64,000 bases of DNA from Escherichia coli. Lineage in GTDB: Bacteria > Pseudomonadota > Gammaproteobacteria > Enterobacterales > Enterobacteriaceae. The position numbers and the translations under genes are program-made. Shown here one piece after another: positions 42,601 through 57,157 of this stretch; within the stretch, counting starts at the first letter, position 1; every line of letters begins with the position of its first letter. The stretch is taken from the NCBI GenBank assembly GCA_005400705.1, contig GCA_005400705.1_4079.1; one strand, given 5' to 3'. The notes under the pieces are model-generated. The model searched no databases, had not been told where the DNA came from, and saw only the letters and a list, made by a program, of their open reading frames with translations.

Positions 42601-43337
42601 AAATTTTATTTTGTTTTTTCCAATAGTTCCCCTACCGCGTGGGGATAGTTTCCCCGCAGTATCTGGAGTTAGATTTTTCTGAATCTGGAATCATTATCTT
42701 ATAAACTGGGGGCAATGTCAACCGCCTGGACGGATATTTTTAAAAATTTTTTCAGTACTGAATTTTGGGCGTAACTATGCACCCGGTGGGCTTGAGTCTT
42801 TCTCGACTTGATGGAACTATTATACAGTACTGGAAAAATAAAGCAATACCCTGGAAGCAAAAAAGTTTTAATTAATTTGCTTGCTATCCTGGGCCGGACT
42901 ATGGTACTATATTTCAGTACTGAGAAAGTGCGTTTACCTGCTAGGGTGCGGGAGTGTATCCTTTTTTTATATCTTGAATTTTGGGCGTAATTCCGCACCC
43001 TCTGGGGTTTCCGCTTTCTCGCGTCTATGTAGTAATTATACGCTTTTTCAGGATCAAGTCAATACCTAAAAACAAAATAATTGAAAATAATTTAACGCGT
43101 TTAAACGGCCCGTAAAGCCCTGGAATGATTGGAATGGTGCAAATGTATAGCTTAGGTGTATTAATGCGTTAGAATGCGTCTGAGGCCGTTTTACGGGGTA
43201 TAGGGATGATTTGGTGGATTGATTCAGTACTGAATGATAGTACTACTATATAGAAAGATAGTTCCCCTGAATGGTTGCAGTACTGAATGATAGTTCCCCT
43301 ATATAGAAAGAAAACTATTTTAAAAGTATTTGTAGAA

Positions 43338-45155: not shown

Positions 45156-45183
45156 TTGACAAATGTTTTTAAAAGCGTATAAT
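45156..45183 (+). promoter_or_regulatory. sigma70-type promoter TTGACA-16-TATAAT
   Basis: ttgaca 45156-45161, tataat 45178-45183. Confidence 0.55.
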
Positions 45184-45215
45184 ACTTACATCAACTACTG
45201 AATGAGGGTTACAAA

Positions 45216-45827: not shown

Positions 45828-45883
45828 TTCAGTACTGAATCAATGGCGGGAGTGGTTCCCGCCTATAACCAGGAGTAAGCATC

Positions 45884-46117
45884 ATGATCGAACAAATTCA
45901 AACGACCACAAGCCGGAGCGGAACGAAAGTACATTACATCGCTGATACTGATAAAGGTGTACCCTATTGTGCTGTACACGTAAATACTGACGGTGACTAT
46001 TGGTTAACTGTATACGGGCGTTACTCGTTTGCTTTTAGTGCACATTGTAAGATCCTGGAAGTAGTGAAGCCTACCGGTAAGAATATCACGCCGGGAAAAT
46101 GTTTTACTAAGCACTAA
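45884..46117 (+). CDS. hypothetical protein (paralog of 47039 product)
   Basis: 77 aa; GVPYCAVHVNT.G.YW.TVYG.YSF ... PTGKNIT shared with 47039. Confidence 0.6.
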   Translation: MIEQIQTTTSRSGTKVHYIADTDKGVPYCAVHVNTDGDYWLTVYGRYSFAFSAHCKILEVVKPTGKNITPGKCFTKH

Positions 46118-46118
46118 A

Positions 46119-46185
46119 AAGTACTTGCATACTAAGTTTAAAAGCGTATAATACTTTATATCGAGGCGGGGGAATGGTTCCCGCC
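46119..46185 (+). promoter_or_regulatory. PeSL-like cassette
   Basis: aaagtacttgcatactaagtttaaaagcgtataat, hairpin ggcggggg-aatgg-ttcccgcc. Confidence 0.6.
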
Positions 46186-46203
46186 TTTACTGAGGATTAT
46201 CTA

Positions 46204-46491
46204 ATGAGCAAAGTAATTAACTATACAGTACTAAGCAAGTCATTATCTATTAGCCAGTGCACCGATGGTTTTTGGCTGTACGATGAAACGCGTGGCATGA
46301 ATTTAGCTATGCGGGAGAAAACTGCTGAGGCGGCGTATTTACAAGCCCTGGAATACTACCAGGAACGTTTAAAGGAAGTAGAAAACAATTATCAAAATTT
46401 AAAAGAGAAAGTAGATAATTTCGTTTGTCAATTCGTTGACGATGACGAGGAAGACGGGCACTACTGCAACCGTTGCGGATCTTACAATTAA
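46204..46491 (+). CDS. hypothetical protein
   Basis: 95 aa from ATG 46204; C-terminal CNRCGSYN. Confidence 0.5.
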   Translation: MSKVINYTVLSKSLSISQCTDGFWLYDETRGMNLAMREKTAEAAYLQALEYYQERLKEVENNYQNLKEKVDNFVCQFVDDDEEDGHYCNRCGSYN

Positions 46492-46554
46492 GTACTTGCA
46501 ATTAGTTTTCAGTACTGTATAATGGTTTACATCAAAGGGAGAAATGGTTCTCCC
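46491..46554 (+). promoter_or_regulatory. PeSL-like cassette
   Basis: agtacttgcaattagttttcagtactgtataat, hairpin gggaga-aatggt-tctccc. Confidence 0.6.
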
Positions 46555-46573
46555 TGGTAATGAGGAAAATAAA

Positions 46574-46795
46574 ATGGCTAATATCACTACTCTTTCCCAA
46601 CTGGAAGCACTGGTTAAATCTATGCGGGAACATGCCGACAAAATCGGCGTACAAGATCCAGCCGTTTGCTTCTGCGACGAATTGAATGATGATACCCTGG
46701 TAATAGCAGAAGTCCAGGACGTTTCTAACTATTCCTCGCGTTACACTGGCGGCGTAGCAAATAAAGGTGACTTCTGTTTATACCTTACAAAATAA
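46574..46795 (+). CDS. hypothetical protein
   Basis: 73 aa from ATG 46574, RBS gagga. Confidence 0.55.
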   Translation: MANITTLSQLEALVKSMREHADKIGVQDPAVCFCDELNDDTLVIAEVQDVSNYSSRYTGGVANKGDFCLYLTK

Positions 46796-46798
46796 CAA

Positions 46799-46836
46799 CG
46801 CGGGGAGATAATAACTCCCCGTTACTTTTTCAGTAC
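46799..46836 (+). terminator. intrinsic terminator
   Basis: cgcggggag-ataataa-ctccccg then ttacttttt. Confidence 0.6.
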
Positions 46837-46958
46837 TGAATCATTTAATAGACGGATCTCGGCACCCGGTGGGTTAGTGACTGTTTCGTCTTGATGTAGT
46901 AATTATGCCAGTACTGGATGCACTTGTCAACAATTATTTTTCAAATACTTTTTATTAA

Positions 46959-47017
46959 AATACTTGCAATTAGTTTTTAAACGCGTATAATGTTTTGCAT
47001 AGGGGGAGCGGTTCCCC
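46959..47017 (+). promoter_or_regulatory. PeSL-like cassette
   Basis: tacttgcaattagtttttaaacgcgtataat, hairpin gggga-gcggt-tcccc. Confidence 0.55.
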
Positions 47018-47038
47018 TGGTAACTAAGGAATAATAAA

Positions 47039-47275
47039 ATGCTTGAACAAATCAAATCAACGTCTTCGAATGTAACGGGAACGGTAGCACACTTTACTAG
47101 TGATGAATCGCGGGGCGTTCCCTATTGTGCTGTACATGTAAACACTGAGGGTAACTACTGGTTTACGGTTTACGGTTCATATTCATTTGGACGGCCAGGG
47201 CATCAAAAAATTCTGGATAAAGTACAGCCAACGGGTAAAAATATCACTGCTGAAATGTTTTATAAAAAATCATAA
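47039..47275 (+). CDS. hypothetical protein (paralog of 45884 product)
   Basis: 78 aa, RBS aagga. Confidence 0.6.
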   Translation: MLEQIKSTSSNVTGTVAHFTSDESRGVPYCAVHVNTEGNYWFTVYGSYSFGRPGHQKILDKVQPTGKNITAEMFYKKS

Positions 47276-47276
47276 A

Positions 47277-47339
47277 GTACTTGCAATTAGTTTTTAGTAC
47301 TGTATAATATTTTACATCGCAAGGGGGAGCGGTTCCCCC
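47277..47339 (+). promoter_or_regulatory. PeSL-like cassette
   Basis: aagtacttgcaattagtttttagtactgtataat, hairpin ggggga-gcggt-tccccc. Confidence 0.6.
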
Positions 47340-47359
47340 TGGTAACTAAGGATAATCAA

Positions 47360-47659
47360 ATGAAAATTGCAATCATCGCCCTGGCTTTATCTGTTTCCTC
47401 TTTCGCTGTTAATGCGTCATTAGATGTAAGTAGTGAAAAATTCATTCAGTGCACTGTTGCAATGACCGATGAAAGTACTGGCGAGATTGTTTTAAAGGAT
47501 TTAGAGATCCAGCCCGAAGCATTTAAAAACGGGCCGTTCCATGAAGAAGACGAAAAAGGTAGCACGACAATTTATTACGATGCAAGTACTAAACGCGGTT
47601 CGGTCACTGTTATGGATACTGAGAAAGTAACTCATACTGGCGTTATTAATTGCCGTTGA
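47360..47659 (+). CDS. secreted protein (signal peptide)
   Basis: 99 aa, signal peptide MKIAIIALALSVSSFAVNA. Confidence 0.55.
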   Translation: MKIAIIALALSVSSFAVNASLDVSSEKFIQCTVAMTDESTGEIVLKDLEIQPEAFKNGPFHEEDEKGSTTIYYDASTKRGSVTVMDTEKVTHTGVINCR

Positions 47660-47680
47660 TAGATACTACGGGGTAACATC

Positions 47681-47911
47681 ATGACTAAGCGAATTGTTTT
47701 ACTTAACGAAAGCAGTACTACACAACTACTTAACGCCGTGCATTATGATATTGAAACGAGCGTTAATCTTATCAGTACTGTAGTACTGTTGGACACTGGA
47801 AAGGTCGCCAATGATAAAGCGATTGCAGGTATACTAACGGATCTTGAGCCTGGTAGCAGTGCACCAATAACGTTAAATGGTAAAGTGTTTAATATTTTAC
47901 TCACTGATTAA
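47681..47911 (+). CDS. hypothetical protein
   Basis: 76 aa. Confidence 0.5.
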   Translation: MTKRIVLLNESSTTQLLNAVHYDIETSVNLISTVVLLDTGKVANDKAIAGILTDLEPGSSAPITLNGKVFNILLTD

Positions 47912-47917
47912 GTACAT

Positions 47918-47941
47918 AGCCCACCTGGTGGGCTTTTTTGT
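47918..47941 (+). terminator. intrinsic terminator
   Basis: agcccacc-t-ggtgggct then T6. Confidence 0.7.
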
Positions 47942-47992
47942 TTTTGTAGTATCGTAGTACTGAGATACTTTGAAAATAGTTTTAAAAAATAG

Positions 47993-48020
47993 TTGACATT
48001 ACCGCAGAAAAGCGTAGAAT
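47993..48020 (+). promoter_or_regulatory. sigma70-type promoter TTGACA-16-TAGAAT
   Basis: ttgaca 47993-47998, tagaat 48015-48020. Confidence 0.5.
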
Positions 48021-48143
48021 GTATTACATCAAGACGGGGAGCACTAAGTAGACCGCCAGTAAGTCGAACGAAAAACTGGACACGTCGAGAAAACTTTGAT
48101 ACACTAATAAACGTAAACTAAACTTTAATTGAGGATTTATAAA

Positions 48144-48626
48144 ATGGCTAATGTAAAATCATTCATCAAAGCACTGGTAGCAAATGAAACTAACGTCGCG
48201 GCAGAGATCCTGGCTGATCTGGATAACGATACCATGAAAGCGGTACGCAATAATTTTAACATCGCTTATAGTACTGCGAAAGAACTACAAGCAAATAAAG
48301 CGGCAGAAATTGAAGCGGCAAAGGCGGCCCGTGAAGCAGAACTACAAGCAACAATTGAAAGTATCCAGGCGGCAGTAGTTGGATTGGATCTGGAAGTAGT
48401 TACAGAGATGGCACAAAAAGCCCTGGCGGTTAAGTATGGGGAAGATAAGCCGGAATCTAAGCCTAAAAAATGGATTCAAAAACGTGTAGCGGTAGTACTG
48501 GACAACGGGGAAGAATATCTGATTCCGGTGCGTGGTAACTGCATTGCGGTAGTACTGGATGCGATTAACTCCAGTGGTATGACTCGCGAGGAATGGATCG
48601 AAGCTCATCGCAAAGTTGAAGCATAA
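48144..48626 (+). CDS. hypothetical protein
   Basis: 160 aa from ATG 48144 (RBS gagga); alternative start 48129. Confidence 0.55.
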   Translation: MANVKSFIKALVANETNVAAEILADLDNDTMKAVRNNFNIAYSTAKELQANKAAEIEAAKAAREAELQATIESIQAAVVGLDLEVVTEMAQKALAVKYGEDKPESKPKKWIQKRVAVVLDNGEEYLIPVRGNCIAVVLDAINSSGMTREEWIEAHRKVEA

Positions 48627-48647
48627 CAATTAAAGTACTGAATCACT

Positions 48648-48675
48648 AGCCCACCTTAAACGGTGGGCTTTTTTG
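48648..48675 (+). terminator. intrinsic terminator
   Basis: agcccacc-ttaaac-ggtgggct then T6. Confidence 0.7.
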
Positions 48676-48823
48676 TGTTTATCGTTTACCAGGCCACCAG
48701 CACCGCCTAGAAACGATTCTAACGCATTAAACTGATTATCTGATGCATTGCCCTAGCTGGTGGCGTTAAGGCTGTAAGAACGCGATTGAGAGCGTTTAAA
48801 GTATTTTGCAAAAAGTAATAAAA

Positions 48824-48888
48824 AGTACTTGCACGATTAAGAGATTAGCGTATAATGTTTTACATCGAGAGGGGGAAACGGTTCTCCT
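48824..48888 (+). promoter_or_regulatory. PeSL-like cassette
   Basis: aaagtacttgcacgattaagagattagcgtataat, hairpin ggggaa-acgg-ttctcc. Confidence 0.55.
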
Positions 48889-48911
48889 TCCAAATCAAAG
48901 GAATTAAAACA

Positions 48912-49139
48912 ATGGCTATCGTAATCACTCGCGTAACTGGTACTACTGGCAATTCTTCTACTGTTGCTGTAATTACTAATAAGAAAGGTGCGGAATTGCA
49001 TTTTGCAATGGATAAATGGGCCGTTAATGAGTTCGGTCAGTGGGCAAGTGTAGCATACATTGAAACCTATCAAGTGCCGTCGATTAGTTTAACTGATTTG
49101 GGCGTTGAGCGTATCCTTTGCCTGGATGAATTAAATTAA
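48912..49139 (+). CDS. hypothetical protein
   Basis: 75 aa from ATG 48912, RBS aaggaa. Confidence 0.55.
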   Translation: MAIVITRVTGTTGNSSTVAVITNKKGAELHFAMDKWAVNEFGQWASVAYIETYQVPSISLTDLGVERILCLDELN

Positions 49140-49140
49140 A

Positions 49141-49206
49141 AAAGTACTTGCAAAGTAAATCAGATAAAGTATAATACATTACATCAAGGGGAGAAATGGT
49201 TCTCCC
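49141..49206 (+). promoter_or_regulatory. PeSL-like cassette
   Basis: aaagtacttgcaaagtaaatcagataaagtataat, hairpin gggaga-aatggt-tctccc. Confidence 0.6.
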
Positions 49207-49225
49207 TGATAATGAGGAAACTAAT

Positions 49226-49369
49226 ATGAAAACTTGTCAATGTGGTAAAAAATCTATTACTGGTTTAAAGCGGGGCGTTGCACTTTGCCAGTACCATTAT
49301 AATTTACAAGTATGGGGTAAAGAATGGGCCGACCAGGTGGAAGCAGCAAAGAAAGCAAAAAGTAAGTAA
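49226..49369 (+). CDS. small Cys-containing protein
   Basis: 47 aa (below cutoff), RBS gagga; CQCG...C..H. Confidence 0.45.
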   Translation: MKTCQCGKKSITGLKRGVALCQYHYNLQVWGKEWADQVEAAKKAKSK

Positions 49370-49388
49370 AAATATTATCACAGTACTA

Positions 49389-49417
49389 TTGACATAGTTT
49401 GATAGTACTGGCATAAT
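49389..49417 (+). promoter_or_regulatory. promoter TTGACA-17-CATAAT (AGTACTGG class)
   Basis: ttgaca 49389-49394, gatagtactggcataat. Confidence 0.5.
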
Positions 49418-49450
49418 AGATTTTATCAAGACAACTAAGAGGAAATTAAA

Positions 49451-49795
49451 ATGGCTAATATCAACACTATCGCAAAACAAAATATCAACCTGTCTTCTGT
49501 TGAAGTTGTACATATTGCCGCTCGGCGTTGGTTCCAGGCTTCATATGGTAACACTTATTTCTCTTTAAGTGTAGACGTAGAAATTGATGGTAATTTTATT
49601 GAAGTAGTAAACGTGCCGTTCCAATATGGATACGGGGATCACTTTGACACTGTAGCAATGGAAGAATTTAGCAAGGTTATTAATATGGAAGATAAGGAGT
49701 TTACACGCGGATCGTACCTTTCACGTTTTTGCCGTGATAATAATATCACTGTTTACAGTTCGGTAACTGATGTTAAACGCAAAAAAGATCTTTAA
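49451..49795 (+). CDS. hypothetical protein (paralog of 55420 product)
   Basis: 114 aa; shared features incl. C-terminal DVKRKKD. Confidence 0.55.
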   Translation: MANINTIAKQNINLSSVEVVHIAARRWFQASYGNTYFSLSVDVEIDGNFIEVVNVPFQYGYGDHFDTVAMEEFSKVINMEDKEFTRGSYLSRFCRDNNITVYSSVTDVKRKKDL

Positions 49796-49875
49796 TTCGC
49801 TTTACTTTATGCAGATACTTTGATATAGTGTCTGCATAGGGGAAAGAAATTAAATTAACTTAAGAGGAACGTATA

Positions 49876-50145
49876 ATGAAAAATATCAGTACTTTAATCG
49901 ATGCAGGTACACATGTTCGGCGGTCAATGGTTGCAACCAGTACTACAAAACAAGTAGCGAGCGGTTATCTTGTATTTGTGCACGATGGTAAACTCCTGGA
50001 ACGTTCAATCAATTTTGATGTTAAAAACAATTGCCGTTTTATTATCTTTCGCCGTGAACAATATAAGATCGACATTCCAGCGAAGCCCATTAGCGGTGCG
50101 TACAACGTGCAATCATTGTTTGAGCGTCAACCATACACCTATTAA
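49876..50145 (+). CDS. hypothetical protein
   Basis: 89 aa, RBS agagga. Confidence 0.5.
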   Translation: MKNISTLIDAGTHVRRSMVATSTTKQVASGYLVFVHDGKLLERSINFDVKNNCRFIIFRREQYKIDIPAKPISGAYNVQSLFERQPYTY

Positions 50146-50196
50146 TCAAAACATCGTTAGCGGTTGATTTAGGCCGCTTATATTGAGGATTATACC

Positions 50197-50469
50197 ATGA
50201 ACGTTAATCAAGTACTGAATGAGATCGAAAGCATCATTAAACCGATGAAGCGTACTGATGCTATGTTAACACCGGAAGAATGCCGCCTATATGAGCGTTA
50301 TAGCGTCGAACAAGTCCAGGCAATGGCTATGGCTACCACAGCCGTTAAACCGCCTGAGAATGCGTTACAGGACGTTACAGGGGATTATATCATCAATCCA
50401 GTACTAGGGAAGATGGCTGCAATCACCGAAGATCAACAAGACTACTTAAGCCAGTACTTAAAAGGTTAA
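50197..50469 (+). CDS. hypothetical protein
   Basis: 90 aa, RBS gagga. Confidence 0.5.
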   Translation: MNVNQVLNEIESIIKPMKRTDAMLTPEECRLYERYSVEQVQAMAMATTAVKPPENALQDVTGDYIINPVLGKMAAITEDQQDYLSQYLKG

Positions 50470-50474
50470 TTAAT

Positions 50475-50684
50475 ATGCTTACTGTACAGGATAAGATCGA
50501 CATCTTAAAGGTTAATATGTATGTGATTGATGCCGTACCTGGTAAAGTATTTGCATACGATGATAGTACTGTAAGCGATTTCTACTATAGCCAGGACGTG
50601 GGGGATCTTTCTGTACAGTCGGTTATTGAAAACGTAGTTAATGCAGCGTATGAGCATTTACTTTCAAATAGTACTTGCAATTAG
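50475..50684 (+). CDS. hypothetical protein
   Basis: 69 aa. Confidence 0.45.
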   Translation: MLTVQDKIDILKVNMYVIDAVPGKVFAYDDSTVSDFYYSQDVGDLSVQSVIENVVNAAYEHLLSNSTCN

Positions 50685-50734
50685 TTTTTAAACGCGTATA
50701 ATGTTTTACATGAAGGGGAGAAATGATTCTCCCC
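50670..50734 (+). promoter_or_regulatory. PeSL-like cassette
   Basis: agtacttgcaattagtttttaaacgcgtataat, hairpin ggggagaa-atga-ttctcccc. Confidence 0.6.
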
Positions 50735-50753
50735 ACTAATTAAGGAATATGAA

Positions 50754-50900
50754 ATGAAAGCATCAAAAAAGAGTAATACCAAGAAAGCATGTTCACCTTT
50801 CGCTGGGGTATTCCCTTTACGTTTCGTTGATGAAGTGGTTTCCTACCCGCCGGGCCTTACTCCTGAGATGGTAGAAAGTTTGCGTAAATCTAAAAAATAG
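50754..50900 (+). CDS. small basic protein
   Basis: 48 aa (below cutoff), RBS aagga. Confidence 0.4.
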   Translation: MKASKKSNTKKACSPFAGVFPLRFVDEVVSYPPGLTPEMVESLRKSKK

Positions 50901-50963
50901 TACTTGCAATTAGTTTTCAGTACTGTATAATGTTTTACATGAAGGGGAGAAATGATTCTCCCC
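50899..50963 (+). promoter_or_regulatory. PeSL-like cassette
   Basis: agtacttgcaattagttttcagtactgtataat, hairpin ggggagaa-atga-ttctcccc. Confidence 0.6.
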
Positions 50964-50981
50964 AATAACAGGAGAAACAAA

Positions 50982-51134
50982 ATGAAACAATACAACGCTC
51001 GGTTTGATGTTACTATCGGTAACGGCAAAGGTCAATTCTCTTTCAGTACTCGCAAAAGTTATACAGAAAACTTCCTGCGTAATTGTGCACTGACCGCCGC
51101 TCAAATTAAACATTACTTTCAGGCTAAAAAATGA
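50982..51134 (+). CDS. small protein
   Basis: 50 aa from ATG 50982, RBS aggaga. Confidence 0.45.
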   Translation: MKQYNARFDVTIGNGKGQFSFSTRKSYTENFLRNCALTAAQIKHYFQAKK

Positions 51135-51220
51135 AATCATTAGCTTACTATAGTTCGGCCCTGGTCGGTACATTGATCGCGGCATTGTTAGTAACCTATC
51201 TATTCTTTATGGTGATTTAA
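51131..51220 (+). CDS. small hydrophobic peptide
   Basis: 29 aa, ATGA overlap, single TM helix. Confidence 0.25.
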   Translation: MKSLAYYSSALVGTLIAALLVTYLFFMVI

Positions 51221-51364
51221 ATGAATCCAACAGGTTTAAATTATAAAAGTTGTTCGGCGTTTACGAAAGCAAATAAAGCGAATGCACGTAAAGCGAAAGT
51301 ACAGGAATACATCAAGCAAGGCATGACGCGAAAGGCGGCGATTCTAAAAGCTAAAAATAAATGA
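51221..51364 (+). CDS. small basic protein
   Basis: 47 aa, start abuts upstream stop. Confidence 0.35.
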   Translation: MNPTGLNYKSCSAFTKANKANARKAKVQEYIKQGMTRKAAILKAKNK

Positions 51365-51371
51365 AAAAAGT

Positions 51372-51402
51372 GGTTGACTCCGGTCAGCCATTTTGCTATT
51401 AT
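51372..51402 (+). terminator. fused terminator-promoter (GGTTGAC-TCCG-GTCAGCC)
   Basis: Hairpin 51372-51389, TTTT, tattat 51397-51402. Confidence 0.6.
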
Positions 51403-51488
51403 ATATTCATTGAGAGATAGCTCACTAGCCCACAGGGTGCATAAGTGTATCTATTATATAAGTATTGAGTACTGAAAACTATTTTTAA

Positions 51489-51554
51489 AAAGTACTTGCA
51501 AACTATCTCAATTGGCGTATAATGTTTTACATCGCAAGGGGAAACGGTTTCCCC
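51489..51554 (+). promoter_or_regulatory. PeSL-like cassette
   Basis: aaagtacttgcaaactatctcaattggcgtataat, palindromic stem ggggaaac-g-gtttcccc. Confidence 0.6.
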
Positions 51555-51574
51555 TGGTAATAAGGAAACGAATC

Positions 51575-51916
51575 ATGACTATCTCAATTGCTCAATCTAA
51601 CTTTGAAAACGAAATCATCGCCCAGGCACTGCGTTTAAATGATGGTCGGGCCGAAATTAATTACGGTTTCAATTCAGGCGGTTGCGAAAAATATCAGTAC
51701 TTTGTAACGGCTGATGGCGGTGTCCTGGGGATCAATACAGTTATTGTAAACATTCAGAAAATTAATTTCAATGATCCAGAAGATAGCCAGTTTTACATCA
51801 CGGGCGTGAACGTGAACTATGAGGATGATTATCTAACTGATGATCACACTGGCGAGAAGTTAGAAAGTGCATACGGTGAAGATGATTATCAGTCCGGTCC
51901 AGAAGATTTTGAATAA
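51575..51916 (+). CDS. hypothetical acidic protein
   Basis: 113 aa from ATG 51575, RBS aagga. Confidence 0.55.
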   Translation: MTISIAQSNFENEIIAQALRLNDGRAEINYGFNSGGCEKYQYFVTADGGVLGINTVIVNIQKINFNDPEDSQFYITGVNVNYEDDYLTDDHTGEKLESAYGEDDYQSGPEDFE

Positions 51917-51930
51917 TATTAAAAAATAGT

Positions 51931-51990
51931 TTGACAATAGATTATAGTACTGTATAATAAGTTACATCAAGGGGAGAAATGATTCTCCCC
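51931..51990 (+). promoter_or_regulatory. PeSL-like cassette (TTGACA-16-TATAAT)
   Basis: ttgaca 51931-51936, tataat 51953-51958, hairpin ggggagaaatgattctcccc 51971-51990. Confidence 0.6.
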
Positions 51991-52010
51991 ACTAACAAAG
52001 AGAAAACAAA

Positions 52011-52223
52011 ATGGCTAATATCTGCACTGTACTGAAAAATGCAAAACAAGTTTTATTTTCTGATCATGAAAATTTCAACAAGGATATTACGGGCGTTCGG
52101 AATATCAAAGATGTAAAAAGTGTTATGGGTATCTATTGCAATATGAAACGTGTTGGTACGTTCGGCGACAAAGTACTATACCAGGCAGGGGATTATAACT
52201 TTACATTAACCATTATCAATTAA
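52011..52223 (+). CDS. hypothetical protein
   Basis: 70 aa. Confidence 0.55.
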   Translation: MANICTVLKNAKQVLFSDHENFNKDITGVRNIKDVKSVMGIYCNMKRVGTFGDKVLYQAGDYNFTLTIIN

Positions 52224-52241
52224 AATATATTACCAGTACTA

Positions 52242-52270
52242 TTAACAATGATTGATAGTACTGGCATAAT
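52242..52270 (+). promoter_or_regulatory. promoter TTAACA-17-CATAAT (AGTACTGG class)
   Basis: gatagtactggcataat. Confidence 0.45.
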
Positions 52271-52314
52271 AACTTTTATCAACAGTAGTTAACTTAACAA
52301 AAGAGAGAAACAAA

Positions 52315-52458
52315 ATGATCGCACTAGATTCATTCATCGACGCAGTACTGGCAAAAACTGGCGAGGATCTGACCGCAGAACAATACGCGATGATCGAACA
52401 ATGTCAGCAAAACGGTAAATCGGTGAAAGATACTGTTAAGATTATCCGCAAGATGTAA
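52315..52458 (+). CDS. small protein
   Basis: 47 aa (below cutoff), RBS agagag. Confidence 0.4.
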   Translation: MIALDSFIDAVLAKTGEDLTAEQYAMIEQCQQNGKSVKDTVKIIRKM

Positions 52459-52563
52459 GATTATAGCCCACTGGTTAACGCTGGTGGGCTATAATTCATT
52501 ACCCTATACAATGCCAGTACTCAACCGTTTATCTCGTTAGAATGCGTTACAGGACGTTTACCA

Positions 52564-52761
52564 ATGATTAGCATGAAATCAGTACAAAAACAAATAGAAA
52601 CATTATCAAAAATTAAACGTAAACAGTACTCGTTAGAATATACAATCAATGGTAACTATCATCTAATGAAAGAGAATAATTTTATCGTCATTGATGAATC
52701 ATTGCAAGTTATTAGTATAGTACTGAAAGCATTAATCAATGACAGAAAAAAATTAAAATAA
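52564..52761 (+). CDS. hypothetical protein
   Basis: 65 aa. Confidence 0.45.
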   Translation: MISMKSVQKQIETLSKIKRKQYSLEYTINGNYHLMKENNFIVIDESLQVISIVLKALINDRKKLK

Positions 52762-52765
52762 TCTA

Positions 52766-52794
52766 TTGACAATATCCTCCAGTACTGGCATAAT
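52766..52794 (+). promoter_or_regulatory. promoter TTGACA-17-CATAAT (AGTACTGG class)
   Basis: ttgaca 52766-52771, agtactggcataat. Confidence 0.5.
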
Positions 52795-52856
52795 ACTTAC
52801 ATCAAGACGAGAACGTCACCAACCCATAGGGTGCACAAATGTAACTATATAATATC

Positions 52857-52929
52857 GATCAATAAATGATCAAAAAAGTACTGGATCAATTTAGCATAAG
52901 GCGTATAATTCTGATCAATTCTTGATCAA
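52857..52929. repeat. cluster of five (T)GATCAA repeats (GATC sites)
   Basis: gatcaa at 52857, 52868, 52884, 52913, 52924, flanking a tataat at 52903-52908. Confidence 0.5.
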
Positions 52930-53090
52930 AGGCAATATACGCAGTTGAATTTATATAGACAGTACAAAGGCGTTACTATCCGTGGTAATGCTGGTGGATA
53001 TGTAGTATCATATGGTTTGAATAAGATAAACACTAGTAGTATTATTGTAGCATTACAGTACTATAGTATTTTTATAATGAGGTTAAAATA

Positions 53091-53348
53091 ATGGCAGTAG
53101 GATACGCGAAAGACGGGGCCGAACAAGACGAGATTCATGCAGTGATTCAGGCCGCCGTTAACCACGCTAGAAAGCAAATTAACGCACAAAGAGAATCACT
53201 GGTACATTGCCTCGACTGCGGCGATAAAATTCCTGAGAATCGACGCCAGGCCGTTATAGGGTGCATGTATTGTATTACTTGCCAGGAGGATCATGATAGT
53301 ACTTTTAAAAGAGATCCGCGTAATTGTTGGCATAGATCTATGAGATAA
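53091..53348 (+). CDS. TraR/DksA-family C4 zinc-finger protein
   Basis: 85 aa; CLDCGDKIPENRRQAVIGCMYCITCQ gives CxxC-x17-CxxC as in TraR/DksA. Confidence 0.65.
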   Translation: MAVGYAKDGAEQDEIHAVIQAAVNHARKQINAQRESLVHCLDCGDKIPENRRQAVIGCMYCITCQEDHDSTFKRDPRNCWHRSMR

Positions 53349-53354
53349 AAAGTA

Positions 53355-53383
53355 ATTGACAGTACTGAAAGATAGTGTATAAT
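53355..53383 (+). promoter_or_regulatory. sigma70-type promoter TTGACA-17-TATAAT
   Basis: ttgaca 53355-53360, tataat 53378-53383. Confidence 0.55.
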
Positions 53384-53412
53384 GTTTTATATCTTAACTG
53401 AGGATAGAAATC

Positions 53413-53769
53413 ATGGGAATACAACATATCACGCGTACTACTGACAATGGCGAGATCACTGGTTATCAAGTACAGGGCAAAGTAGCACAATTGCAGTACT
53501 GGTTTGTTAAACGTGGAATCATTGCACCGGATCTTGATTATGACCGTGTAGCGTTTATTGATTCTCTTTATGTTGATCCTGATAGTCGGGGCAATGGTGA
53601 AGGTAACGAATTAATGAATGCCTTTATCGATGCCGCCGATGATTCAGATTGTATCATCTTAGAATGCGATACGGGAGAAGATAACGCCTTTAATCTTAAA
53701 GAATGGTACGAAGGTTTCGGATTCGAGGTATTGATAGATAGTGAATATCCTATCATGATTTTATCATAG
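53413..53769 (+). CDS. hypothetical protein, possibly GNAT-like acetyltransferase
   Basis: 118 aa; IDSLYVDPDSRGNGEGNELMNAFIDAA loosely resembles GNAT motif A. Confidence 0.5.
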   Translation: MGIQHITRTTDNGEITGYQVQGKVAQLQYWFVKRGIIAPDLDYDRVAFIDSLYVDPDSRGNGEGNELMNAFIDAADDSDCIILECDTGEDNAFNLKEWYEGFGFEVLIDSEYPIMILS

Positions 53770-53830
53770 TACTTGCATTTAGTTTTCAGTACTGTTATAG
53801 TACTTGCATCAAGGGGAAACATCTTCCCCT
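53768..53830 (+). promoter_or_regulatory. PeSL-like cassette (degenerate -10)
   Basis: agtacttgcatttagttttcagtactgttatag, hairpin aggggaa-acatc-ttcccct. Confidence 0.45.
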
Positions 53831-53847
53831 ACTAAGAGGAAATAAAA

Positions 53848-54036
53848 ATGGAAAACTTATCAAGTATTTTAGTACAAGATGATTTCGGTAATCCTGGAAG
53901 TGCTATCATTGTTCGGGGTAATAAAGCAACGTTTGTTATTGCTGGTGGACCCGTACAGCGTAGCATTAAAAATAATGCTGTTACCATTAATAATGTACGC
54001 TATCGCTTAGATAAAGAATTGATTCATAAACTGTAA
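53848..54036 (+). CDS. hypothetical protein
   Basis: 62 aa, RBS agagga. Confidence 0.5.
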   Translation: MENLSSILVQDDFGNPGSAIIVRGNKATFVIAGGPVQRSIKNNAVTINNVRYRLDKELIHKL

Positions 54037-54044
54037 AAAAGTAC

Positions 54045-54104
54045 TGGACAATAGATTATAGTACTGTATAATAAGTTACATGAAGGGGAGAAATGATTCT
54101 CCCC
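54045..54104 (+). promoter_or_regulatory. PeSL-like cassette
   Basis: tggaca-16-tataat (54067-54072), hairpin ggggagaaatgattctcccc. Confidence 0.55.
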
Positions 54105-54122
54105 AGTACTGAGGAAAGAAAA

Positions 54123-54335
54123 ATGCAAGGTCAACTAATCGTTCGTAAATGGTCTGATACTAACGCTAAACCGTGGGATGTACAATACATCGGCCCCAAT
54201 GGTGAATCCAGATATCAACCAGGTGTAACGCATAGTACTGAGCAATTCGCCGCCGCTCATCGTGAACGTCTGTTACAATCAATGCAGCAAGGTTCCGGTG
54301 AAAAATTCATTCAGGATCATTGGCTGAAAGATTAA
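54123..54335 (+). CDS. hypothetical protein
   Basis: 70 aa from ATG 54123, RBS gagga. Confidence 0.55.
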   Translation: MQGQLIVRKWSDTNAKPWDVQYIGPNGESRYQPGVTHSTEQFAAAHRERLLQSMQQGSGEKFIQDHWLKD

Positions 54336-54336
54336 A

Positions 54337-54400
54337 AAGTACTTGCACAGTACTGAATAAAGTGTATAATGTTTTATATCGAGAGGGGAATAGTTCCCCT
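54337..54400 (+). promoter_or_regulatory. PeSL-like cassette
   Basis: aaagtacttgcacagtactgaataaagtgtataat, hairpin gaggggaa-tag-ttcccctc. Confidence 0.6.
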
Positions 54401-54421
54401 CCTAACAAAAAGGAAAGTATA

Positions 54422-54595
54422 ATGATCCAAGTAGAATTATCAGTACTGAAAGATCTATTTTATCGGTTAGGTACTAATGGCGAGTATCCTAAAAGTGATA
54501 CCGCAAAACTTTTTGTATCACTCGACTTATGGCAACGCGAACAATTAGTAATGTCGTGGCGTAAAGGTAAAGCAGATCGCGAGGTGAAAGCATGA
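54422..54595 (+). CDS. small protein
   Basis: 57 aa from ATG 54422, RBS aaggaaag. Confidence 0.45.
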   Translation: MIQVELSVLKDLFYRLGTNGEYPKSDTAKLFVSLDLWQREQLVMSWRKGKADREVKA

Positions 54596-54741
54596 AAGAA
54601 TTCTTATTTGAAGTAGTGTTTCAAGGTGTCGGTAATAACCAACTGATTCGATCAAGTGGTTATAATGTTAACCAGGCATGGAATAACATTAAACAAATGT
54701 ACCCTAACGCTATCACCTATCGCAACCCGAAAGAAGTTTAA
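54592..54741 (+). CDS. small protein
   Basis: 49 aa, ATGA overlap. Confidence 0.35.
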   Translation: MKEFLFEVVFQGVGNNQLIRSSGYNVNQAWNNIKQMYPNAITYRNPKEV

Positions 54742-54755
54742 AAATAATTGAAAAA

Positions 54756-54789
54756 GGGATTGACTCCGGTCAGTCCCTTTGCTATTATA
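54756..54789 (+). terminator. fused terminator-promoter (GGGATTGAC-TCCG-GTCAGTCCC)
   Basis: Hairpin 54756-54777, TTT, tattat 54784-54789. Confidence 0.6.
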
Positions 54790-54873
54790 TACGCATAGAA
54801 ACAAATCAGCCCACCGGGTGCATAAATGTATCTATTGTTTGCTGGTGGCTAGTACTGAAAACTATTTTTAAAA

Positions 54874-54906
54874 AGTACTTGCATTGTACTTAGAATCAAG
54901 TATAAT
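54874..54906 (+). promoter_or_regulatory. PeSL-type promoter driving the structured element
   Basis: aaagtacttgcattgtacttagaatcaagtataat. Confidence 0.55.
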
Positions 54907-54990
54907 GTTTTACATCAGGACGGGGAACGAAATAAGTAACTTCCCGTTAAGTAGCCCAGGAGTAAGGCACACGAAAAACTCCCCTGATAA
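54907..54990 (+). ncRNA. candidate structured small RNA, copy B
   Basis: Sequence identical to 45066-45150. Confidence 0.35.
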
Positions 54991-54996
54991 AATAGT

Positions 54997-55024
54997 TTGA
55001 CAATAGAAAGTAAACGAGTATAAT
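54997..55024 (+). promoter_or_regulatory. sigma70-type promoter TTGACA-16-TATAAT
   Basis: ttgaca 54997-55002, tataat 55019-55024. Confidence 0.55.
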
Positions 55025-55057
55025 ACTTACATCAACCACTGATAAGGAAACATTAAA

Positions 55058-55333
55058 ATGCGGATTCTACTGACAGCTAACGAAATCGAACAAGTACTGA
55101 CTACTAACCTGGAACAATGGAAACGTGATGCAGATATCCAGGCGGTTCAATGGCTTAACGATAAGTTAACGCCGGATGACTTAAGCAAGATTGTAGATCC
55201 TCAATTCTACGAAGATATCCACGACACCGCGTTAAGCGTCGAGGATGTACTTGATAAGCACTACATTGATACTGATTTACAGGTTTACGGTCGTAAAAAC
55301 TTTATCACTATCCACGACATTTACAATAATTAA
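55058..55333 (+). CDS. hypothetical acidic protein
   Basis: 91 aa, RBS aaggaaa. Confidence 0.55.
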   Translation: MRILLTANEIEQVLTTNLEQWKRDADIQAVQWLNDKLTPDDLSKIVDPQFYEDIHDTALSVEDVLDKHYIDTDLQVYGRKNFITIHDIYNN

Positions 55334-55336
55334 GTA

Positions 55337-55398
55337 TTGACAAAGTATCTTAGTACTGTATAATAGTTTACATCAAGTGAGGGGAAACGGTTCCCCTC
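55337..55398 (+). promoter_or_regulatory. PeSL-like cassette
   Basis: ttgaca-16-tataat (55359-55364), hairpin gaggggaaacggttcccctc. Confidence 0.6.
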
Positions 55399-55419
55399 CT
55401 AACAAAGAGAGAAATAAAA

Positions 55420-55743
55420 ATGGCTATGATCCTTACCCAGAAAGTAGAACTGAAAATTGTAACCTCCTTTGACATTAAAGTTAATCGCTGGACTGATCGG
55501 AACGGCAATACTTACCACTCTTGCTACGTGTCTGCATTGATTGGTGATCGTTGGGAAGACCTGGGACACGAAACTTTTACATACGGTTACGGTACGCAAG
55601 GCGAATACACGGGCTTGGAGATCATTAAAGAAACCGTTATAGGTTTCAACCCGAAAGAAAAAGTTATTCACCGCATCGAAAAAGAGATTAACAAAGAAAT
55701 AACAGTTCGCTACTACGATGTAAAACGTAAGAAAGACATGTAA
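55420..55743 (+). CDS. hypothetical protein (paralog of 49451 product)
   Basis: 107 aa, RBS agagag. Confidence 0.55.
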   Translation: MAMILTQKVELKIVTSFDIKVNRWTDRNGNTYHSCYVSALIGDRWEDLGHETFTYGYGTQGEYTGLEIIKETVIGFNPKEKVIHRIEKEINKEITVRYYDVKRKKDM

Positions 55744-55758
55744 TAGAATCCATTTAAA

Positions 55759-55794
55759 GTACTATTTGACATTACACAGATAGTACTTTATAAT
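55759..55794 (+). promoter_or_regulatory. promoter with palindrome AGTACTAT...ATAGTACT
   Basis: ttgaca 55766-55771 inside the palindrome, tataat 55789-55794. Confidence 0.5.
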
Positions 55795-55838
55795 AGACTC
55801 TAGCTTGTAGTACTAACTTAACTAATAGGATGTATACC

Positions 55839-56234
55839 ATGATTACTAAATTCTACGCTACCCGTGAAGCTGCCCGTATTGTTGCACGCGAGGAAGGAGC
55901 AGCATTTAAAGACATGGGCAAAGATGCACCGAAAGGCCAACGCTGGGCCGTACAGTTCAAAGAGATCTCTGATATTGTGAATTCACCGGAGCCAGTACTG
56001 ACAGCAGCAGAACAGAAGAAAGCTGATGAACTGTCAGCAGTTCTTAACGCTCAAGATGACTTTATCGCGGGTTCTGATATTAAAGTTTCCGTAAATTCGA
56101 ATGCATGGACTCACGCGGATCATCTGGCTAACTTGAAGCGTCCAAGTGTACTGATTCGCAACCAACGAGAGATCCGCCACGACCGCAAGGGAAACAGTGT
56201 TACTGTATTCAGTAAACGCCGCCAGGTTATCTAA
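55839..56234 (+). CDS. hypothetical protein (paralog of 44207 product)
   Basis: 131 aa from ATG 55839, RBS agga. Confidence 0.55.
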   Translation: MITKFYATREAARIVAREEGAAFKDMGKDAPKGQRWAVQFKEISDIVNSPEPVLTAAEQKKADELSAVLNAQDDFIAGSDIKVSVNSNAWTHADHLANLKRPSVLIRNQREIRHDRKGNSVTVFSKRRQVI

Positions 56235-56255
56235 TAACTTGCAGTACTAACAACA

Positions 56256-56290
56256 CGGCGGGTTCAGTTCCCGCCTTTTTTTTATAGGAT
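56256..56290 (+). terminator. intrinsic terminator
   Basis: ggcggg-ttcagtt-cccgcc then T9. Confidence 0.7.
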
Positions 56291-56298
56291 AAACTAAA

Positions 56299-56553
56299 AT
56301 GATGAAGGTACAACTATCTAAAGATAATATCTTGCGGGTACACTATAAAGCACCACAGAGAATCATCACAAAGGCCGTACAGCTTGCTAATGAGTTTATT
56401 AATGGTAGTCTATTACCCAGGAAGTTAAGCAACGGGAAACTACGTGTTATCGATGTAGACACTAACAATAGAATAGTAATTGAGAGTACTGGAAAAATTA
56501 ATCTATATGAACACCAACAATACAATAAAAAAATAAAACTAATATCACGTTGA
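56299..56553 (+). CDS. hypothetical protein
   Basis: 84 aa. Confidence 0.5.
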   Translation: MMKVQLSKDNILRVHYKAPQRIITKAVQLANEFINGSLLPRKLSNGKLRVIDVDTNNRIVIESTGKINLYEHQQYNKKIKLISR

Positions 56554-56578
56554 CAGTACTCAATTGTTTTAGTATTAT
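56550..56578 (+). promoter_or_regulatory. promoter TTGACA-17-TATTAT
   Basis: Near-identical to the 56826 promoter and leader. Confidence 0.5.
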
Positions 56579-56606
56579 GTACACATACCAACACGGGAGA
56601 AACAAA

Positions 56607-56825
56607 ATGAAATTATCTAAAATCGAAAAGAAAACTATTGATGAAGCAGTTAAGCACGGTTATACCTTTCGTAATGATTCACATTTTACCAATTTTCAAC
56701 AAGGGTATCGTACTATTAAAAAACTAATTGACAAAGGTTTATTAGTTGAAGTCAATAACGGCAATGGCATTGAGTATCAACCAACACAGGACGCATTTTA
56801 TTTTAAGAAATATAATATTATCTAA
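56607..56825 (+). CDS. hypothetical protein
   Basis: 72 aa from ATG 56607, RBS gggaga. Confidence 0.5.
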   Translation: MKLSKIEKKTIDEAVKHGYTFRNDSHFTNFQQGYRTIKKLIDKGLLVEVNNGNGIEYQPTQDAFYFKKYNII

Positions 56826-56854
56826 TTGACAGTACTCAAATGTTTTAGTACTAT
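56826..56854 (+). promoter_or_regulatory. promoter TTGACA-17-TACTAT
   Basis: Duplicate of the 56550 cassette. Confidence 0.5.
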
Positions 56855-56883
56855 ATGTACATACCAACACGGGGAAAAACAAA

Positions 56884-57126: not shown

Positions 57127-57157
57127 TATAGTTTCATTAACTCAAGGAGAACATGCA

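Follow-up and report, generated by a model that had tools for sequence, protein, structure and literature searches.

Solitary CRISPR-repeat-like hairpins, also known as RNA anti-CRISPRs, are short and conserved sequences of non-coding phage, plasmid and island DNA that lie in early-entering regions, and in phage T5 it is the terminal-repeat DNA that is injected first. The promoter-early stem-loops (PeSLs) of T4-type phages were reportedly proposed by Arbiol et al. in 2010 to be mobile regulatory cassettes for modular shuffling. For the T5 left terminal repeat, the preprint by Davison (bioRxiv 10.1101/866236) proposes the DnaA boxes and palindromes of the repeat regions as an injection stop signal. 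In this study, a stretch of 64,000 nucleotides (the window), which comes from a jumbo coliphage of 121Q/PBECO4 type (Asteriusvirus) and represents its terminal-repeat early region, was found to carry several copies of an element of ~36 nt made up of an A-rich tract, a variable closing stem and AGAATGCGTTACAG-NN-CGTTTTAG. The element is apparently previously undescribed, as literature searches with its sequence returned unrelated primers only and no published description.

Comparatively, the element resembles the PeSLs in being a short conserved non-coding hairpin, repeated between small early genes of a plastic region and at module boundaries, that supplies homology for exchange; flank classes recombine at it in ~4-kb plasmids, and the cassettes 3' of it differ in rep-region plasmids. 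However, it has no sigma-70 promoter and is near-identical across unrelated phage families, plasmids and islands, while the true PeSL analogues in the window are more than 20 promoter-plus-leader-hairpin cassettes, from which the element is separate. With REP/BIME sequences it shares a length of ~35 nt, an imperfect hairpin, many copies, a mostly intergenic location, some inverted pairs and co-transcription with its neighbours, but REPs are chromosomal whereas the element is confined to mobile DNA, with 1 to 4 copies per replicon and no associated transposase evident. In T5-like phages the copies fall within the untranslated repeat regions treated in the Davison preprint, which belong to the left terminal repeat, and the Asteriusvirus copies also belong to a long terminal repeat, of which the first ~1.7 kb are non-coding and rich in repeats; the preprint's section on these regions deals with T5-like repeats, palindromes and DnaA boxes only, and mentions neither the motif of the element nor its wider spread. 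Like the RNA anti-CRISPRs, the element is a short conserved hairpin in the non-coding mobile DNA of early-entering regions, but no Rfam CRISPR repeat family matches it even at permissive E-values, and by eye ~16 of 26 positions agree with the enterobacterial I-F repeat, with a different order of parts.

The core of the element was first recognised as a 19-mer, GAATGCGTTACAGGACGTT, which the earlier note placed inside CDS 50197-50469 and again in an untranslated leader, and we confirmed exactly two + strand matches (50358-50376 and 52540-52558); no third site exists in the window at ≤2 mismatches, and 100 shuffles gave zero. This main pair survives exact re-checking as a maximal exact repeat of 20 nt, AGAATGCGTTACAGGACGTT, at 50357-50376 and 52539-52558. 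A profile was built from 25 sequences, all of them non-Asteriusvirus, and its nhmmer search of the window gave four matches, all on the + strand, scoring between 27.6 and 11.0 bits, against a best score of 7.7 bits among 20 shuffled windows. The strongest is the intergenic copy (52533..52567, +; match from 52536, E=1.1e-7, 27.6 bits), which has CGTTAG..GTTTA in common with the copies of phi92 and the T5-like phages. It overlaps the leader and ribosome-binding site of a small early gene (52564..52761, +; 65 aa, phrog_36844, homologue of 121Q gp292); 5 nt separate the end of the second exact copy from ATG 52564, and AGGA at 52550-52553, within the copy and 5' of that ATG, is likely its Shine-Dalgarno sequence. 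A hairpin after the upstream gene (52465..52492, +) carries a Chi octamer at 52480-52487; the octamer lies 59 nt 5' of the element core, in every relative as in the window. Chi octamers as a whole were 28-fold over expectation.

The second match is embedded in coding sequence (50346..50376, +; E=3.4e-6, 22.8 bits, model positions 2-31) and includes the family 5' flank AAACCGCCTGAG. Its host is a small early gene (50197..50469, +; 90 aa, homologue of 121Q gp284) whose product has no Pfam or PHROG family and is annotated as a hypothetical protein in the relatives; the copy lies in frame as ..P-E-N-A-L-Q-D-V.., the 20-mer reading E-N-A-L-Q-D-V. A third, more diverged copy (43163..43197, +; E=0.0017, 14.3 bits) sits in a 1.1-kb non-coding repeat region adjoining the left genome terminus and is also present in a metagenomic Asteriusvirus contig (L047). 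A metbox-like array of 12 units was also noticed at 42498-42594. The fourth copy is degenerate (48767..48801, +; E=0.018, 11.0 bits) and lies 3' of a terminator, ahead of the next early promoter; a Chi octamer at 48756-48763 ends 3 nt before it (Chi at -21 from the core), and three relatives (L001, L006 and L008) have AGAATGCGATTGAGAGCGTTTAAAG at this position, which is better preserved. The copies in the Asteriusvirus window are partly decayed. It had also been claimed that the 12-mer GTTAGAATGCGT recurs near 43160 and, as reverse complement, near 48712. The + strand copy was borne out, at 43168 within the third copy, whereas the exact reverse complement was not: the - strand there reads TGCGTTAGAATCGTT, agreeing with the 12-mer at 9 of 12 positions and showing 3 mismatches to a related 15-mer, and the better + strand copy at 48767-48801 had been overlooked. 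The 48712 region corresponds to a weak partial inverted copy (48701..48730, -), which at E=8.1 is not significant alone. An inverted partial copy followed ~40-65 nt 3' by a forward copy was seen in three places, namely at 48701-48730, at 43095-43125/43163 (with the partial inverted copy on the - strand at 43104-43118), and in an IncX1 plasmid, where gaatcgctttctaacgctttg lies 40 nt 5' of copy 1.

With reference to conservation, nine related phages were compared; where the record of an Asteriusvirus relative opens with the terminal repeat, the window copies map ~1.5-11 kb into that record. Six of the nine keep the CDS copy exactly; it is 1 base off in UB, 4 bases off in SHEFM2K (3 of its 4/20 differences being synonymous) and deleted in 121Q, whose homologue of 50197..50469 has a 3' deletion. 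Two alleles of this gene exist, and they diverge over a patch of ~50 nt in which the 5' half of the element is included. All 10 aligned genomes (9/9 relatives) carry an identical intergenic copy, but the entire surrounding intergenic region is 98% conserved, so that no special constraint on the 20-mer can be inferred there. Since both copies are found in nearly all nine relatives, the repeat is not a recent local scar.

Beyond this phage group, the core was matched in the non-coding DNA of T5-like, phi92/rV5-like and K64-1 phages and in 1,495 plasmids, of which 1,480 matched over at least 80% of the 37-nt consensus and 993 are conjugative. In order, the element comprises an A-rich tract, the first arm of a variable closing stem of 5 bp, (T/C)AGAATGCGTTACAG-NN-CGTTT(T/A)A and the second arm of that stem. 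Around a near-invariant core the flanks are 65-87% identical or else unrelated, and 45 metagenome contigs carry the core in at least six different flank contexts. In the three plasmids inspected (IncX1, IncX4, and pO177B2 with the same rep-side layout), the element is held at one fixed place adjoining the replication origin; the IncX1 order is iterons, DnaA boxes, a ColE1-like primosome-assembly sequence, two copies of the element, and stbDE. In T5-like phages the element adjoins DnaA boxes, with a LexA-box-like palindrome and the DnaA boxes 3' of it. In ~4-kb MobQ plasmids it lies inside the relaxase (mobQ) gene, at the 3' end, and the window's CDS copy agrees with it in 25 of 26 bases and is read in the same frame. 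Because each window copy matches outside members in different flanks, neither is simply derived from the other. Among 5,426 E. coli genomes the element occurs at 1 chromosomal place; being essentially absent from these chromosomes, it was not assigned a host chromosomal origin. In a scan of one genome per species we obtained 6 matches against ~4 expected by chance on a rough estimate, of which only a Kluyvera small-plasmid contig looked real. Chromosomal islands hold two inverted copies 3.1-3.6 kb apart with a small tyrosine recombinase between them; no single recombinase is present in all contexts. The orientation is almost always that of the local genes, the K64-1 copy being antisense. The family is usually at home in non-coding DNA, with the CDS copy as the exception, which reverses the direction of the earlier claim that a coding fragment had been reused in intergenic DNA.

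In the ~4-kb plasmids, the element stands exactly at the boundary between homologous and unrelated flanks. Downstream sequences that are unrelated to each other (25-29% identity) there follow the same upstream class, with the element as the junction: upstream class U2 occurs with downstream class D0 in 3 contigs and with D2 in 4, U0 was found with both, and D0 and D2 are 29% identical, which is the random level. Similarly, the toxin-antitoxin cassette 3' of the element differs between IncX1 and pO177B2. These data show that the element marks breakpoints between homologous and non-homologous DNA. A link with recombination, as suggested earlier, holds in the broad sense, through the ~4-kb plasmid junctions and the divergent patch of the CDS allele, but not as a local scar; the two window copies, from which illegitimate recombination in this block had been directly deduced, are old and kept in related phages.

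The predicted fold differs between strands: for 59 of 63 distinct variants the sense strand gives the more stable fold (mean -9.1 vs -4.9 kcal/mol for the antisense strand), an asymmetry that is due to G-U pairs, and canonical copies show fold z-scores of -2.9 to -5.2. In the window, the CDS copy gives a hairpin of -11 kcal/mol (z=-2.0) and the intergenic copy a weak one of -6.5 kcal/mol (z=-0.34). In the closing stem, 61% of cells are paired, compared with 51 ± 2.8% in shuffles, and the stem's covariation score is 0.305 vs 0.176 shuffled (0/500 shuffles as high for either measure), with two-sided changes at 5/5 pairs, in a test on related sequences with a structure picked after viewing them. 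The inner stem never changed on both sides, which makes its support one-sided; the variable NN are mostly purines and still pair with UU in 27/34 and 29/34 sequences. RNAalifold gave zero consensus structure from the 34-sequence alignment, and the structural case consists of the hand-named stems and the strand asymmetry.

Various known identities were tried for the element and rejected. A sigma-70 promoter with TAGAAT as its -10 lacks a conserved -35, the copies differing from one another in the bases 5' of TAGAAT, and CAGAAT stands in its place in many of them; a promoter scan found no site at 52500-52560 and, within 50340-50380, only a weak 9-of-12 match at 50364. No intrinsic terminator was called at the window copies, the sense hairpin being without a U-tail and the antisense hairpin weak. 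Rfam 15 gave no window match at gathering thresholds and, at E≤5, no element match in the 42-53 kb part of the window or at six outside loci, and a tRNA or tmRNA fragment was set aside as ARAGORN found zero such genes in the window. A XerC/XerD site, which consists of two 11-bp arms (..CATAA / TTATG..) with a 6-8 bp spacer, was compared through the dif, cer and psi cores, and no TTATG..AAAT arm exists on either strand of the consensus. A DsrA decoy or mimic of the rpoS leader was rejected because the duplex energies of 8 variants, taken with DsrA and rpoS-leader sequences verified in E. coli, were no better than shuffles (z -1.8 to +1.3). Conservation as a peptide motif (..NALQDV..) is contradicted by the TAG that most non-coding copies carry just upstream in that frame, and the variable NN fall on codon positions 1 and 2 with position 3 invariant, contrary to protein-type constraint. 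A Tus/Ter site, invertase crossover, integron attC, R6K iteron, MetJ box, CpxR/OmpR-type direct repeats, P22 boxB and the cspA cold box showed only partial resemblance when their consensus sequences were compared with the element by eye. A toxin-antitoxin operator was suggested by RelE/ParE-type neighbours in K64-1, pO177B2 and IncX1, but these cassettes are not the same, and the majority of contexts have no cassette. As for transfer origins, the oriT of MOBQ4 plasmids maps between mobC and mobA (PMC6856555), whereas in the small plasmids, which are only putatively MOBQ4, the relaxase gene carries the element at its 3' end, and no AAGTGCGCCCT-like nic sequence (≤2 mismatches) was found in five small plasmid contigs. 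In IncX plasmids the oriTs are located within long inverted repeats, close to taxC and to repX/ddp3 (PMC3402527), whereas the IncX1 plasmid has just two copies of the element, which adjoin each other in direct orientation on the side of the origin that faces stbDE.

Among the rival explanations, a chance coincidence of the 20-mer is barely conceivable. By composition, a 350-kb genome should contain ~0.28 direct 20-mer pairs, and therefore repeat length alone is not overwhelming genome-wide, and many windows were presumably scanned; yet only ~0.009 pairs are expected per 64-kb window, and chance is excluded by the copies in other genomes, both sites scoring independently against the other-genome profile. 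It is very improbable that the repeat is nothing more than a local scar or short-patch gene conversion, in which one site was copied onto the other in a phage ancestor. The 20 nt are indeed identical between upstream flanks that are dissimilar (p=0.3-0.7) and downstream flanks that are marginally similar (p=0.02-0.09), and the allele differences in the CDS form a patch centred on the element. Nevertheless, both copies are conserved in related phages, each matches outside members past the shared 20 nt and in different flanks, the window holds two more copies, and the same core recurs in T5-like and rV5-like phages, ~1,500 plasmids and other contexts. The outside copies thus largely refute this reading, and a recent transfer out of Asteriusvirus is unlikely. 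We consider it equally hard to accept that the element has no function of its own, as a selfish or hitch-hiking sequence or the relic of an ancestral module spread by recombination: its position at mosaic junctions, its decayed copies in the Asteriusvirus window and its tolerance in two unrelated coding sequences would suit this, but the core is near-invariant against diverged or unrelated flanks and has been retained in the plasmids, at a fixed place in the three inspected, and in conserved T5 repeat regions.

Two functional alternatives deserve attention. The element may be a duplex-DNA site for a host or plasmid protein of replication, priming or maintenance, with an incidental hairpin potential, a reading which we regard as rather unlikely although it has several points in its favour, including the IncX1 pair beside iterons, DnaA boxes, the primosome-assembly sequence and stbDE, the T5-like order of element, LexA-box-like palindrome and DnaA boxes, the recurrence of CGTT(A/T) in the core with a 10-bp phase, and 'spacer' bases conserved like the repeats, as for a long specific site. 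It is opposed by the strong G-U-based asymmetry of folding, by an outer stem that covaries though its sequence varies, by an orientation that follows local transcription, and by DnaA boxes that are not above chance near the window copies (25 found vs 25.5 expected). An intrinsic terminator on the opposite strand, in which the A-tract would become a U-tract after the hairpin and halt antisense or convergent transcription, appears improbable. An A-rich tract does lie 5' of almost every copy, the reverse complement of the phi92 copy immediately follows the convergent gene gp037 at its stop codon, with UUUUUAUUUU next, and the reverse strand of IncX1 copy 2 folds at -10.2 kcal/mol before UUUUUU; but the reverse-strand fold is poor on average with loops of 8-15 nt, the terminator scan was empty at the window sites, the open reading frame list has no - strand genes around the window copies, and a terminator would not need a loop and stem conserved across unrelated genomes.

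We judge the chances to be about even that the element is a putative sense-strand RNA hairpin which also serves as a recombination linker. The transcribed hairpin would be recognised sequence-specifically by a host factor that all carriers meet, possibly an RNA-binding protein or a processing nuclease, and its 25-35 conserved bases, close to the minimum for homologous exchange, would make it a linker at module swaps. The copy in CDS 50197-50469 may be an element turned into, or captured as, coding sequence, and the copy before 52564 may influence translation through its overlap with the ribosome-binding site. Against the RNA hairpin stand the weak folding of both named window copies, the antisense K64-1 copy, the lack of an RNAalifold consensus and of two-sided changes in the inner stem, and an intergenic copy no more conserved than its surroundings; moreover, the conserved loop and stem sequence is equally compatible with a DNA-binding site.

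More tentatively, and with some doubt, we suggest that a new shared ~36-nt RNA hairpin engages one host factor across all carriers (T5-like, rV5-like and Rak2-like phages, ~1,500 enterobacterial plasmids that were IncX where inspected, small MobQ plasmids and chromosomal islands), with a universal phage-plasmid module linker as its by-product. It is likewise possible, though doubtful, that the carrier DNA in this reading is the first-entering or origin-proximal part, and the shared host factor might be used, for example, in stabilising or processing early transcripts or in blunting host defence. The same ~25-nt core is kept by lytic phages of three unrelated families, by a major family of resistance plasmids (its two typed examples being IncX1 and IncX4) and by small mobilisable plasmids. 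If the core is functional, these carriers would share a dependence on one host component, giving a new handle on early infection and plasmid maintenance, and if it is mainly a linker, it would be a concrete sequence for phage-plasmid module exchange; both readings are testable in the classical systems T5 and R6K.

The 19-mer GAATGCGTTACAGGACGTT occurs exactly at two places in the window, 50358 and 52540, both on the + strand; no third match was found in the window with up to two mismatches allowed, and none appeared in 100 shuffles. The longest exact repeat at these places is the 20-mer AGAATGCGTTACAGGACGTT, starting at 50357 and 52539, and this pair is among the few exceptions in a window whose exact repeats of at least 17 nt come nearly all from promoter, leader-hairpin or terminator families. 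Direct 20-mer pairs are expected 0.009 times in the window and about 0.28 times in a 350-kb genome of the same composition, so that in a large scan the length of the repeat is not decisive by itself. The repeat is genuine and not a product of chance; its explanation is that both sites belong to a dispersed element, a hairpin-forming sequence of about 36 nt with the 20-mer as its core, for which our literature searches returned no description. The earlier note had read the pair as a coding fragment reused in intergenic DNA, a recombination scar at 50350-52560; as worded this is unsupported, since these are two copies of one family and neither site was copied onto the other. Its shorter 12-mer is matched exactly at 43168, and the supposed reverse complement at 48712 is inexact, the - strand reading TGCGTTAGAATCGTT and agreeing at 9 of 12 positions; such secondary matches proved to be diverged family members.

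Asteriusvirus jumbo coliphages, among them 121Q, PBECO4 and phAPEC6, match the window at 91-96% identity. Positions 42250-43330 correspond to nt 572-1664 of records that start at the annotated direct terminal repeat, which places the physical left terminus at about 41680 and therefore the repeat pair 8.7-10.9 kb into the terminal repeat. This region is a succession of very small genes, most with their own sigma-70 promoter and leader hairpin. The first copy lies in frame, read as E-N-A-L-Q-D-V, in a 90-aa gene without known family (50197-50469), and the second stops 5 nt short of the ATG (52564) of a 65-aa gene, the AGGA inside it being likely the ribosome-binding site of that gene. With a profile of 25 sequences from which Asteriusvirus was excluded, four + strand copies were detected, all of them in the terminal repeat: 52536-52560 (E=1e-7), 50346-50376 (E=3e-6), 43163-43197 (E=0.0017) and 48767-48801 (E=0.018). 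The same profile gave no score above 7.7 bits in 20 shuffled windows.

Other repeats are also found in this part of the genome. An early promoter (AAAGTACTTGCA..N..GTATAATGTTTTACAT) recurs more than 20 times over 42044-61759, each time ahead of a G-rich leader hairpin and a ribosome-binding site. There is one such unit per small gene (for example 50668-50724, 50897-50953 and 51489-51545), and these units are counterparts of the promoter-early stem-loop cassettes known from T4-type phages. The gene content between these cassettes differs among relatives; a homologue of 121Q gp290 is absent here between 52223 and 52315. A second family is a terminator hairpin (GGGATTGACTCCGGTCAGTCCC) with TTGACT in its stem and TATTATAT after it (51367-51410, 54751-54796, 57752-57797 and 60195-60242), so that terminator and promoter appear to overlap in one element. 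The hexamer AGTACT, often as CAGTACTG, appears strikingly frequent throughout the window in promoter spacers and gene interiors (52255-52262 and 52781-52788, for instance).

Just inside the left terminus, 42200-43330 is a 1.1-kb stretch without a convincing ORF, dense in repeats, palindromes and Chi sites and harboring two element copies; its layout resembles that of the untranslated repeat regions in T5's left terminal repeat, which have been linked to the injection stop signal. The E. coli Chi octamer GCTGGTGG occurs 14 times in the window (3942-60314, mainly 42266-60321) against 0.5 expected, with a maximum of 4 in 300 shuffles. Twelve sites are on the + strand and two on the - strand; ten of the former lie at 42278-60314, the early region in the terminal repeat, and two sites stand back to back, CCACCAGCacaaGCTGGTGG, at 42266-42285, about 590 bp inside the left terminus. 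Under the standard RecBCD rule, - strand sites suit entry from the left end and + strand sites suit entry at the right-end repeat copy, and the arrangement looks like built-in RecBCD protection. At 42498-42594, in non-coding DNA with the genome end about 0.8 kb away, we also observed 12 tandem 8-nt units (AGACGGCT, AAACGGCT, AGATTTCT, GGATGGCT and others), with a periodicity that may begin near 42435. These match the MetJ box AGACGTCT at a mean of 6.0 of 8 positions in one register and at no more than 2.0 in the other seven; in natural MetJ operators the number of boxes is 2-5. The surrounding 1.1 kb is 97-98% identical in the relatives listed, 36 records contain most of it, and the array could be a MetJ sponge or mark a MetJ-controlled region. 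No title or abstract describing such an array was found in our literature search.

The element consensus consists of an A-rich tract (often AAUAAAAAC), one half of a closing stem, (U/C)AGAAUGCGUUACAG-NN-CGUUUU(A), and the other half of the closing stem, which is 5 bp long and variable in sequence; the NN positions are mostly purines, preserving the pairing with UU. Canonical copies form a single hairpin with 12-14 pairs, G-U pairs among them (-12.7 to -22.7 kcal/mol, z -2.9 to -5.2), and in 59 of 63 distinct variants the sense strand folds more stably than its complement. The closing stem, picked like the inner one after inspection of sequences that are related to one another, is paired in 61% against 51% in shuffles (0 of 500 as high), shows both-sided changes at all five pairs, and has a covariation score above every shuffle and slid control. 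The inner stem is 87% paired yet invariant, and for that reason lacks the support of both-sided changes; RNAalifold by itself predicted no structure for the element. The repeat-pair copies in the window fold only weakly to moderately (-6.5 and -11 kcal/mol) and look partly decayed.

Outside the window, copies were located by short-query BLAST with the core, the matches extending to about 24-30 nt. In phi92/rV5-like phages the element follows a terminator where a convergent gene ends, and in T5-like phages the left terminal repeat holds up to three copies, in its untranslated repeat regions. One T5-like copy directly precedes a LexA-box-like palindrome and the DnaA boxes that Davison described. 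In the Klebsiella jumbo phage K64-1 the element is inverted and has a terminator on one side and a ParE-like toxin gene on the other. The element points the same way as the transcription around it in the window and in phi92, T5-like phages, the IncX1 plasmid, small plasmids and islands; K64-1 departs from this. In the 46-kb plasmid pO177B2 the rep gene flanks the element on one side and a RelE/ParE toxin-antitoxin module on the other, and in MobQ plasmids of about 4 kb it is contained in the relaxase gene, at the 3' end, identical to the phage coding copy at 25 of 26 nt and in the same reading frame. A 37-nt consensus matches 1,495 plasmids (1,480 at no less than 80% of its length), 993 of them conjugative; the two that we opened are IncX1 and IncX4. 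The IncX1 plasmid (NZ_CP010168.1) shows repX, iterons, DnaA boxes, a ColE1-like primosome-assembly sequence, an inverted partial copy, two direct copies separated by 189 nt, and stbDE. The interval from its DnaA boxes to the element contains a sequence (2560-2680 of locus L073) nearly identical to a stretch adjacent to the ColE1/pBR322 origin (ccgcttcctcgctcactaactcgct..ggctgcggcgagcgg), and that ColE1 stretch is a primosome assembly site.

A metagenome scan with AGAATGCGTTACAGNNCGTTT yielded 45 loci in at least six unrelated flank contexts, islands included. In three enterobacterial chromosomal islands (L045 2158-5367, L048 5868-9552, L030 1381-4922), two inverted copies 3.1-3.6 kb apart enclose a small tyrosine recombinase of 192-205 aa, together in L048 with a Dam methylase fused to a helix-turn-helix domain, a layout which suggests that the segment may be invertible or mobilisable. 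E. coli chromosomes are essentially free of the element (one place among 5,426 genomes), and scanning one genome per species turned up about as many matches as chance would give by our estimate, plus one Kluyvera small-plasmid contig.

Several known classes were rejected: promoter or terminator, by a site scan of the window copies and the strand folding energies; Rfam family, tRNA and CRISPR repeat, with no match in our searches; and oriT and a DsrA decoy. A peptide motif was likewise rejected, as an in-frame TAG occurs in most non-coding copies and bases vary at codon positions 1 and 2. The consensuses of Xer, Ter, invertase, attC, iteron, metbox and boxB sites showed partial resemblance only.

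Among nine relatives the intergenic copy shows no differences; the region is 98% conserved throughout, and hence this identity is not evidence of special constraint. The coding copy is exact in six relatives, differs by one base in UB and by four in SHEFM2K (three synonymous), and is missing from 121Q owing to a 3' deletion. In the sequence flanking the 20-mer, similarity between the two window copies is absent upstream (p=0.3-0.7) and marginal downstream (p=0.02-0.09).

The recombination proposed in the earlier note holds in another form than a scar, namely as switching of flanks and cassettes at the element and as an allele patch over it. The two alleles of the phage coding sequence are about 90% alike, save for a patch of about 50 nt at about 50% identity that covers the element's 5' half. 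Among 18 contigs of small plasmids, the classes formed by the upstream flanks are related (65-87% identity), and those formed by the downstream flanks are unrelated (D0 against D1/D2, 25-29%). One upstream class is followed by either downstream class, with the switch exactly at the element (U2-D0 in three contigs, U2-D2 in four), and U0 is also joined to both. In rep-region plasmids, the toxin-antitoxin cassette immediately after the element differs between plasmids.

The main rival explanation is a duplex-DNA site within origin-proximal or first-entering DNA. The sense-strand folding bias, the changes in the closing stem and the orientation with local transcription are consistent with the reading that we propose, in which a host factor would bind the element as an RNA hairpin of the sense strand, and the element may serve also as a recombination linker.
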